Below are positions 4,977 to 42,904 of a stretch of 44,857 nucleotides of DNA, piece after piece; position 1 is the first letter of the stretch; each line of letters starts with the position of its first letter. The stretch lies in assembly GCA_044356215.1 (NCBI GenBank), contig JBIKWQ010000021.1, positions 1-44,857 of the forward strand. The letters run 5' to 3'. The position numbers and the translations under genes were made by a program. A model generated the notes under the pieces. The model searched no databases and was not told where the DNA came from. It saw nothing but the letters and a program-made list of their open reading frames with translations. This DNA is from Bdellovibrionota bacterium. GTDB lineage: Bacteria > Bdellovibrionota_C > UBA2361 > OMII01.

Positions 4977-5229
4977 AGGAAGGACGGCAAAACCCTCCCT
5001 ACTGCGAAAGCGGATCTTGAGCTGCTCCTCGAATTTTCGAGATGGGAAAAAATCCTCAATGTATCACAGGGGATACACCTCCGGCCTTCGCTAAAGCTAC
5101 GGCCGGCGAGGCTTTTGTCGGACCAGACGTAGCCTTGGCGTAGTCTGGTGCGGTTTTTTCCCATCTCGAAAATCGAATATCAACTCAACCTCCACTTTCT
5201 CGCTACGGGTAGGTTTTGCCGGCCTTCCC
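4977..5229. mobile_element. Palindromic MITE family A, copy 1 (carries a 69-bp nested insert)
   Basis: Ends GGAAGGACGGCAAAACC / GGTTTTGCCGGCCTTCC; homologous to 24695-24878 and 42623-42807; TG and TA flanks. Confidence 0.9.
5080..5148. repeat. 69-bp double-hairpin REP-like element nested in family A copy 1
   Basis: Hairpins CCGGCCTTCGCTAAAGCTACGGCCGG and CCAGACGTAGCCTTGGCGTAGTCTGG; absent from the other two family A copies. Confidence 0.85.
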
Positions 5230-5563: not shown

Positions 5564-5726
5564 TAGGGCGTCGCAGTGTTTTTGGTAAGCTGCTGAGACA
5601 ATTAGTAAAATATTTTTTACCACAGAGGACGCAGAGGACACAGAGAAAACCCCATAATTGCCCATAAAATGGCCGTTCTCTGTGTCCTCTGCGTCCTCTG
5701 TGGTGATAAAGAACTGCGACGCCCTA
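5564..5726. mobile_element. MITE family C with 14-bp TIR and 9-bp target-site duplication
   Basis: TAGGGCGTCGCAGT...ACTGCGACGCCCTA; GTAATTGTT on both sides (5555-5563, 5727-5735); internal perfect IR ACCACAGAGGACGCAGAGGACACAGAGAA. Confidence 0.85.
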
Positions 5727-24012: not shown

Positions 24013-25050
24013 CTACCACAACAAAGCTAATAACCCGACATACATAATCAGAGTTCCAACAATTCGTCGGCCTCTGTTCTTCTCATTAAACAACTTGCCC
24101 CCAGCAACGACAGTAAAGATCATCGACATACGCATAATCCCAACGACCACATGAGCTGGCAAGGTCGTCAGAGCTACCATCTTCGCCACCATAAATCCGG
24201 TTTCAAAAAAGCCACGTAGAAAAAATGACCCCGCATTTGAGGTCAGATCAACCCTAGCTGAAGGGACACGAAACAGCGCCGGTAACGTAAGGAGTGCGGC
24301 GCATACTGTAACCGAGAACGCCGACGTGACAGCCCCTGCTTGACCGACCGCAAGACGATCAAGCGCGCTGTTGAGCGCGAAGGCCAGAGACCCGATAAGC
24401 GCATAAATCACGGCCACAGGTTGCGCGACTTTTCCCGTTGTCCGGTCGCGTTTCACAAGCACCAAACCTCCCAGGACTATAAGTACAACCCCAAGCACCT
24501 CAGAGCGATGAATTACATCACCTGTGATAAATGGGGAGATGATGGTCAAAAAAAGAGGCGACAACGAGAGCAGTCCGCTTACAAGCGATACATCCCCTTT
24601 TTCAAACGCGCGCATCTTGCACCCCTCAGCGCACACATCCGATATACCACGCATAAACACGAGGGCAAGAAACGTTTGTGAGAGCGAGCCACTAGGGAAG
24701 CGAGGCAAAACCTTCCCGTAGCGAGAAAGTGGAGGTTGAGTTGATATTCGAGTTTCGTGATGAGAAAAAACCGCAGATGTATCCGCTGAGATACATTGAG
24801 GATTTTTTCTCGTCGCGAAATTCGAAGAGCAGCTCAAGATCCGCTTTCGCAGCAGGGAGGGGTTTTGCCTCGCTTCCCTCGGTTCCCCGTACAAGTAAAG
24901 GGCTGCCAAGATTATCGCATAGAACGGCAACGCAAAAAGAAATGAGGCAAAGGTAGAGATATCTGGATTGACCTTACTGGCAACGGATTTGCTCACGAGG
25001 TCTTTTGCAGTGGCCGCGCAGGCGGCTAGTAGGGTAGCTATGATTCCCAT
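24013..25050 (-). CDS. EamA/DMT family transporter with an in-frame 62-aa MITE-derived insert
   Basis: About 10 TM segments in two repeats (AFEKGDVSLVSGLLSLSPLF; LFNEK); 283 aa once the insert is removed. Confidence 0.88.
   Translation of the reverse strand: MGIIATLLAACAATAKDLVSKSVASKVNPDISTFASFLFALPFYAIILAALYLYGEPREARQNPSLLRKRILSCSSNFATRKNPQCISADTSAVFSHHETRISTQPPLSRYGKVLPRFPSGSLSQTFLALVFMRGISDVCAEGCKMRAFEKGDVSLVSGLLSLSPLFLTIISPFITGDVIHRSEVLGVVLIVLGGLVLVKRDRTTGKVAQPVAVIYALIGSLAFALNSALDRLAVGQAGAVTSAFSVTVCAALLTLPALFRVPSARVDLTSNAGSFFLRGFFETGFMVAKMVALTTLPAHVVVGIMRMSMIFTVVAGGKLFNEKNRGRRIVGTLIMYVGLLALLW
24695..24878. mobile_element. Palindromic MITE family A, copy 2 (intragenic, in frame, inverted relative to copies 1 and 3)
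   Basis: GGGAAGCGAGGCAAAACC / GGTTTTGCCTCGCTTCCC TIR; TA and TC flanks; 184 + 2 = 186 nt = 62 codons. Confidence 0.92.
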
Positions 25051-25918: not shown

Positions 25919-26014
25919 GCAGAGGACACAGAGACTCTCCATAATTGCCAATAAAATGGCCTATTCCCTGCGTCATCTGCGCCTTCTGTGGTGAAAAAGA
26001 ACTGCGACTCCCTA
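25919..26014. mobile_element. Decayed partial copy of MITE family C (right part)
   Basis: GCAGAGGACACAGAG...CCATAATTGCC-ATAAAATGGCC...CTGTGGTGA-AAAGAACTGCGAC-CCCTA aligns to about 5630-5726. Confidence 0.8.
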
Positions 26015-42574: not shown

Positions 42575-42622
42575 GGATCTATCGCCGCTTAGTCATGCCT
42601 CAAGATAATAGTGTCCACGTTA

Positions 42623-42807
42623 GGGAAGGCCGGCAAAACCCCTCCCTACTGCGAAAGCGGATCTTGAGGTGCTCTTCGAGTTTTCGAGATGGGAAAAAAT
42701 CCTCAATGTATCACAGGGGATACACTTGCGGTTTTTTCCCATCTCAAAAATCGAATATCAACTCAACCTCCACTTTCTCGTTACGGGTAGGTTTTGCCGG
42801 CCTTCCT
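42623..42807. mobile_element. Palindromic MITE family A, copy 3 (intergenic, 185 bp)
   Basis: TA-GGGAAGGCCGGCAAAACC...GGTTTTGCCGGCCTTCCT-TA. Confidence 0.92.
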
Positions 42808-42904
42808 TAGCTTCTGACAATTACTTTAGGCTGACTCATCGAGCCGCAGCTCCTAATGAGCCTCTAGTGTGGCATTCTAAACAATCGGGAGCTATCATGA
42901 CGGC

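Follow-up and report, generated by a model that had tools for sequence, protein, structure and literature searches.

The short element at positions 42,624–42,806 of the window (the whole 44,857-nucleotide stretch of DNA analyzed here) is, as judged from its ends and flanks, a MITE of the DDE type, namely a non-autonomous derivative of the IS5 group. Its two arms carry paired base changes that preserve a long hairpin. The most probable explanation, to which we assign a probability of roughly 0.6, is that the MITE is mobilized by an IS5 transposase, that copying between the arms is the main source of the paired changes, and that a filter inferred from the strand bias acts on one strand. A DDE transposase of the IS5 group would recognize the GGAAGNNNGGCAAAAC ends, move the MITE in trans, and duplicate a 4-bp YTAR target. 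The arms would behave as long imperfect inverted repeats, which are re-matched at unconstrained positions mainly by arm-to-arm copying; such template switching or conversion would give rise to multi-base "compensatory" changes in a single step. In the interior, a second and weaker force would favor the spread of variants compatible with G–U or G–T pairing on the minus strand. The property filtered would be the strand-unequal stability of the fold, in that either the minus strand is kept folded or the transcribed plus strand is kept imperfect.

Structure of the element and its copies in the window

Copy 3 (42,624–42,806, plus strand) is a 183-nt MITE of subfamily A, which is characterized by GCC ends, and forms one long imperfect hairpin. 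The target-site duplication TTAG is found on both sides of it (42,620–42,623 and 42,807–42,810, plus strand). Its left 17-bp terminal inverted repeat (TIR; 42,624–42,640, plus strand) matches the left end of IS5 deletion derivatives of the same genome exactly, and the right TIR covers 42,790–42,806 on the minus strand. The earlier note on this DNA had recognized a real element, but its range of 42,621–42,809 takes in three nucleotides of the 4-bp duplication on each side. Copy 2 (182 nt; 24,696–24,877, minus strand) belongs to subfamily B (CGA ends) and lies in frame inside a gene encoding an EamA-family transporter. Its flanks, CGAG and CTAG, represent an imperfect duplication, and its CGA end shares a 16-nt identity with the right end of the intact IS5 described below. 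Copy 1 (4,978–5,228, plus strand; flanks CTGA/CTAA), located between divergent genes, is a composite of a subfamily A MITE and a nested palindromic unit (5,079–5,148, plus strand), which adds a net 69 nt. Three full copies and a remnant had been claimed for the window. The three copies are there, one of them being the composite copy 1, but no remnant was found, and a search allowing up to two mismatches revealed no element ends in the window besides those of copies 1 to 3.

The paired differences described earlier between copies 3 and 2 are all present, in the TIRs (GGAAG-GCC-GGC/GCC-GGC-CTTCC in copy 3, GGAAG-CGA-GGC/GCC-TCG-CTTCC in copy 2) as well as in the inner stem, where GGGAAAAAA/TTTTTTCCC of copy 3 is replaced by GAGAAAAAA/TTTTTTCTC in copy 2. 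The identity of the two copies, estimated by eye at about 85–90%, was measured as 87.3% over 189 nt. With a size of 182–184 nt, the element is too small for a transposase gene. A promoter and terminator scan gave no promoter-like or terminator-like sites inside copy 3, and Rfam at the gathering score gave no match to the element, the matches in the window being two tRNAs only.

A clean empty site was not found for copy 3. Two read runs connect a flank with the end of the element, and in one a strain contig skips 42,551–42,838 (288 nt, corresponding to the MITE and 101 additional nt). The extra DNA around copy 3 contains a weak inverted repeat (approximately 42,591–42,606 and 42,824–42,838), so that copy 3 may itself lie within a further small element. 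At the contig end (44,503–44,857), a tRNA-Val was observed together with a partial copy of it and a perfect direct repeat (99 nt, with the units 198 nt apart), which may mark an integration site or an assembly overlap.

Copy number, distribution, and insertion sites

The source genome (3.24 Mb) is assembled in 131 contigs, many of which break at repeats. A profile search yielded 139 non-overlapping matches. Sorting by hand gave 30 simple and about 25 composite copies that are complete, besides numerous fragments located where contigs end. In an alignment that included the flanks, each of the 30 complete simple copies starts with GGAAG and ends with CTTCC. The prediction of many copies genome-wide was correct, the left-end 24-mer being present 61 times in exact form. 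Among 34 other genomes of the genus, 13 contain this 24-mer exactly, as opposed to none of 89 genomes outside the genus, and BLAST (E ≤ 0.001) gave matches to the element, some of them weak, in 27 of the 34. The four read runs that held the element best were lake-water metagenomes. In the source genome, the family is thus present as dispersed copies of a mobile element, with an empty site known for copy 2.

This site lies in the EamA-family transporter gene (24,013–25,050, minus strand), whose ortholog in genome G004 (86% identical) is missing exactly the 186 nt of copy 2; copy 2 is therefore a 62-codon in-frame insertion. Among 35 copies of the source genome examined, it is the only clean in-frame insertion. 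A family built to stay in frame, in the manner of the Rickettsia palindromic elements (RPEs), was rejected because simple subfamily A copies add 187 nt. Two copies interrupt a Polysacc_synt gene (L013, 1025–1831) and a DUF4269 gene (L012, 1162–1743) out of frame, the ORFs continuing through the element. The stop codons of several adjoining genes fall within the YTAR duplication (L016, 1553 and 1737; L009, 1663; L022, 1733), so that an insertion at such a position leaves the gene intact.

A unit of the type nested in copy 1 was found at the same interior site in all 19 aligned composite copies of the source genome, which include subfamilies A and B. Either the unit was passed between the subfamilies by recombination, or it repeatedly targets that site. 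One copy (L032, 1546–2016; G000:C48) contains three different nested palindromic inserts, so that other small repeats have used the MITE as a landing pad. Another family of palindromic repeats is located at 5,613–5,726 and 25,964–26,014 of the window and is also nested in the MITE at L032.

Target-site duplications and the putative IS5 partner

The element had been described as unlike ordinary DDE MITEs. Its direct 4-bp YTAR duplications and its ends, which match those of a DDE element of the IS5 group, speak against this description. The flanking 4-mers are identical in 20 of the 30 simple copies (CTAA in seven, TTAA in six, TTAG in four, and CTAG in three cases) and imperfect in the other 10; for composite copies of the source genome, identical flanks were counted in 13 out of 19. 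Eleven of the 20 identical flanks are non-palindromic (the seven CTAA and four TTAG), and these are direct repeats in every case and inverted in none, which identifies the flanks as target duplications and not as an extension of the hairpin. The IS5 element of E. coli has a 4-bp YTAR target, and the YTAR targets of the element are the same as those of MITEPsy1. A non-DDE element, either of the REPIN/HUH type or RNA-mobilized, that merely resembles IS5 at its ends would be in accordance with the long hairpin and with the REP-like units nested in many copies. The probability of such an origin is practically negligible, since it is contradicted by the direct 4-bp duplications and by the identity of 16–17 nt with IS5 ends. 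An assignment to the RAYT-linked REP/REPIN class (HUH) was likewise rejected; in place of the short tagged palindromes of this class, which lack IS-type TIRs, we find TIRs of the IS5 kind and duplications of 4 bp.

Using an IS5 fragment of the source genome as query, we could detect an intact IS of 1209 nt with CTAG flanks on a metagenome contig of 1218 nt (L135). Its 322-aa ORF scored 286 bits on the NCBIfam model transpos_IS5_4 (NF033581, cut-off 140) and 103 bits on Pfam DDE_Tnp_1, and the predicted transposase is 49–51% identical to three relatives from Pseudomonas and Xanthomonas. The right end of this IS is identical to the subfamily B end (16 of 16 nt), and a right end of the B type also lies 3' of transposase pieces in three of eight aligned loci of relatives. 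The source genome contains a deleted IS5 with both ends, TTAG/TTAG flanks, the same TIR core, and a broken transposase start. Another IS5 deletion derivative in this genome begins with the exact subfamily A (GCC) end. The question raised earlier, whether each TIR variant occurs on an autonomous IS, can thus largely be answered with yes: both variants are found on IS5 ends, but GCC was seen only on left-end deletion derivatives.

An intact cognate transposase was not found among the contigs of the source genome, which contain just two broken pieces. Transposase pieces (E ≤ 1e-10) were detected in 8 of the 34 genus genomes, all eight of which also have element matches (one of them weak), and in none of the seven genus genomes that do not carry the element. 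Since kin are non-independent, this co-occurrence within the genus is only consistent with a partner link. Beyond approximately 17 bp, the MITE interior resembles the intact IS weakly, and it was not established that the arms of the MITE stem from this IS as the direct parent. Two other searches for a partner gave no candidate. The single DDE_Tnp_1 match found in the source genome was rejected because its 20-bp inverted repeats are unrelated, and nine DUF772 loci of relatives, searched for inverted ends at seed 10, did not have the TIR pair of the element. The DDE element at L041 (603–2514; G000:C82), which has 20-bp inverted repeats and is unrelated to the family, lies directly 3' of two small ORFs that resemble IS66 genes. 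Other short families as well as collapsed forms of 20–26 nt in the source genome (L042–L054) carry the same IS5 end with different interiors, and some of these short forms keep intact flanking 4-mers. The ends and duplications make it highly probable that the MITE is moved by an IS5 transposase.

The IS5 ends also bear on the meaning of the paired TIR changes. These ends are non-complementary at positions 4–8 and still carry perfect duplications (L135 and the deleted IS5 of the source genome), and a MITE copy with GCC on the left and CGA on the right (C60b) has a perfect duplication, too. Positions 6–8 are therefore a tolerated spacer, and their pairing is unnecessary for insertion. Because both TIR variants are found on IS5 ends, the TIR changes are no proof that folding is needed.

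Covariation in the hairpin and probable copying between the arms

The hairpin is far more stable than expected by chance, with z-scores of −11.5 to −13.7 across copies, and none of 200 shuffles folded as well. In the source genome alone, the covariation term was just −0.36 kcal/mol and rested on two or three subfamilies; hence, a genus-wide alignment was built. It comprised 54 copies from 15 genomes, namely 5 of the 30 copies of the source genome, spanning the subfamilies, and 49 near-full-length BLAST matches. Not included were three copies lengthened by inner inserts, three divergent rows, and one edge-cut copy. With the 77-pair structure taken from copy 3, 88.4% of the cells are paired; for the 17-bp TIR helix, the proportion is 93%. 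Two-sided changes were found in 30 of the 77 pairs and 172 cells, compared to 20 pairs and 64 cells in shuffles (0 of 500), which take no account of relatedness; slid controls gave 24–43 two-sided cells, where the cells count sequences and not events. The covariation expected by the earlier note is therefore strong in the interior when examined across the genus. The inner five-base stem, for example, exists in the matched versions GAGAT/ATCTC, ATGGT/ACCAT, GCGAT/ATCGC, AGCGC/GCGCT, and GTGAC/GTCAC, and copy G004a has a paired one-base insertion in both arms. Unpaired and internal-loop positions near the stems are conserved in sequence.

Intra-element conversion, which had been named as an alternative to a functional fold, is directly supported by a copy of the source genome with two left arms (L028, 1604–1866; G000:C58). 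Its interior is inverted, and the switch is located at the shared inner stem. Two further copies of this genome are A/B mosaics. The two-left-arm and mosaic copies could be assembly chimeras instead of products of arm exchange. The change from GCC to CGA, which consists of neighboring transversions in both arms, and the paired insertion of G004a have no G–U route, and the account of Monttinen and Loytynoja (PMC8794818) describes template switching as able to yield multi-base compensatory changes. Conversion within the element probably generates most of the two-sided changes. Mismatches located only a few bases from two-sided changes stay unhomogenized across the genus, so that copying would need very short tracts, or these bases are under separate selection. 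In some columns, a series of G–C, G–U, and A–U with few other pair types was found (e.g., 31/15/8 with none), which is the expectation of plain structural selection and counts against copying. Neutral copying alone predicts no strand bias.

Strand bias and orientation relative to host genes

G–U pairs were tallied by hand on the 77 pairs of the 54 copies and on their reverse complements. In the interior, 178 G–U cells were counted for the minus strand versus 62 for the plus strand (five columns without a Watson–Crick majority were left out). The TIR helix displayed no bias (26 minus, 23 plus) and serves as an internal control for the biased interior. Ten interior Watson–Crick columns have at least six G–U cells on the minus strand and none on the plus strand, a threshold set post hoc; when the consensus wobble columns are added, the ratio is 12 minus versus 2 plus (sign test by hand at the post hoc threshold, p ~0.013). 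G–U pairs had been proposed to occur on one strand only, which applies as a strong bias toward the minus strand but not in the absolute sense, because the plus strand has two consensus wobble columns as well. The covariation score was 0.190 for minus and 0.134 for plus. In RNA folding, the minus strand was the more stable one in both copies tested (−108.5 vs. −98.6 and −112.8 vs. −88.4 kcal/mol). G–T is also tolerated in DNA hairpins, and RNA and single-stranded DNA are thus indistinguishable from the wobble bias. Transcription-linked deamination was rejected as the cause of the bias, since it would be expected to place G–T on the mostly non-template plus strand, opposite to what was observed.

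The idea of the earlier note, when joined to an IS5 enzyme, is that the IS5 MITE needs the fold of its minus strand, as single-stranded DNA or as RNA, to propagate, in which case the covariation would be the outcome of stepwise structural selection. The higher covariation score and better folding of the minus strand, the ten one-sided columns, and the conserved internal-loop positions would all agree with such a requirement. We nevertheless consider it unlikely. DDE transposases work on double-stranded ends, the non-complementary IS5 ends and the GCC/CGA mosaic copy have perfect duplications, and other short families combine the same ends with different interiors. Moreover, copy 3 contains neither a promoter-like nor a terminator-like site, and the bias was counted in sequences with a threshold of six chosen afterward. 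It is distinctly doubtful that the success of this DDE (IS5) MITE lineage depends on one particular strand, which would have to adopt a long hairpin whose internal loops are fixed. In this case, the hairpin might, for example, unite both ends while the DNA is single-stranded at replication forks, the element being too short for them to meet by looping. If true, insertions would be oriented relative to host genes, and a class of transposons assumed to use double-stranded DNA would include a single-strand step. At the other extreme, the hairpin might be under no structural selection at all, with arm copying and founder effects in a few amplified subfamilies producing the covariation and chance producing the G–U bias. 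The small covariation term in the source genome and the neglect of relatedness in the shuffle control point in this direction, but a bias that extends over 10 separate columns in 15 genomes and yet is absent from the TIRs makes it very improbable.

The orientation of the copies relative to host genes was analyzed for 35 copies of the source genome. Judged from ORF lists, a host transcript would contain the plus strand of 16 and the minus strand of 4 of them; of the others, 5 lie between convergent genes, 9 lie between divergent genes, and 1 is ambiguous (two-sided binomial p ~0.012, a rough, post hoc calculation by hand for one genome). The better-folding strand would thus mostly be absent from mRNA. 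This orientation counts against a stabilizing mRNA hairpin; it agrees with a host filter that acts against the stronger hairpin, or with an insertion step that is itself biased in orientation. Host selection on transcripts, by which copies persist where the mRNA strand forms the weaker hairpin, would cause the plus strand to gather A–C and pyrimidine mismatches, with the G–U pairs of the minus strand as their mirror image. The ratio of 16 to 4 is in line with it, and MITE hairpins are known to be cut by RNase III and RNase E (PMC10969869). As the full explanation it is improbable, given that the gene calls were raw ORFs of at least 120 aa, some of them several hundred nucleotides from the copy and all from one genome, that the two-sided changes are not explained by transcript selection alone, and that the RNA read data consist of one contig in one RNA run (share 0.05) without strand information. 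The preferred reading, IS5 mobilization combined with arm copying, includes a filter on one strand as its second and weaker component.

Comparison with known elements

The closest counterpart with respect to mobilization is MITEPsy1 of Pseudomonas syringae pv. phaseolicola, which is associated with ISPsy2 of the IS5 family and whose movement in vivo has been demonstrated (PMC3189936). Both elements are gene-less, have IS5-like GGAAGG ends and a TIR in common with an IS5, insert in coding sequences, and are flanked by 4-nt duplications, CTAG or YTAA in the case of MITEPsy1 (PMC3189936). However, MITEPsy1 measures 100 nt with imperfect 18-nt ends, and the passages of the account consulted mention neither a long hairpin nor covariation (PMC3189936). 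The element described here has 182–184 nt, is paired over its full length, and is predicted to move on the basis of its sequence. With respect to structure, it resembles bcr1 of the Bacillus cereus group, a mobile repeat of comparable length that is flanked by direct repeats and keeps its structure through compensatory base-pair changes (PMC3184786). According to the same source, bcr1 differs in its 5-bp direct repeats, its cruciform-like fold of two stems, and its transcription (PMC3184786); the present element, known from its sequence, forms a single hairpin and has an identified IS5 partner. The MITE Nezha of Anabaena and Nostoc is similar in its stable predicted fold, in the existence of empty and filled sites, and in having TIRs in common with an IS found only in another genome (PMC3184786). 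Its partner is a different IS (ISNpu3), and the part of the account consulted contains no mention of covariation or strand bias (PMC3184786).

Copy 2 in the EamA gene is reminiscent of the RPEs, which are palindromic elements residing in frame in host genes (PMC10969869). In-frame insertion is common in RPEs (PMC10969869), in contrast to the one clean case among 35 copies and the two out-of-frame cases reported here. Stable stem-loops and in-frame fusions are described as usual traits of MITEs (PMC10969869). No report of an IS5 MITE with strand-biased covariation was found in the literature searched, which excluded most subscription papers. The element is of a known kind, since IS5-linked MITEs and structure-conserving repeats have both been described; new are the intact partner IS5, the measured extent of the covariation and of its bias toward one strand, and the skewed orientation of the copies.

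Taken alone, covariation within mobile DNA that is palindromic does not constitute evidence of a functional RNA. The value of the family is that of a test case, in which a candidate intact transposase is available together with dozens of copies spread over several genomes within a genus, and in which the TIR helix provides the internal control for strand effects. An old question thereby becomes testable, namely, whether the hairpins of bacterial MITEs are a by-product of arm copying, the result of a filter on host mRNA, or a part of transposition.
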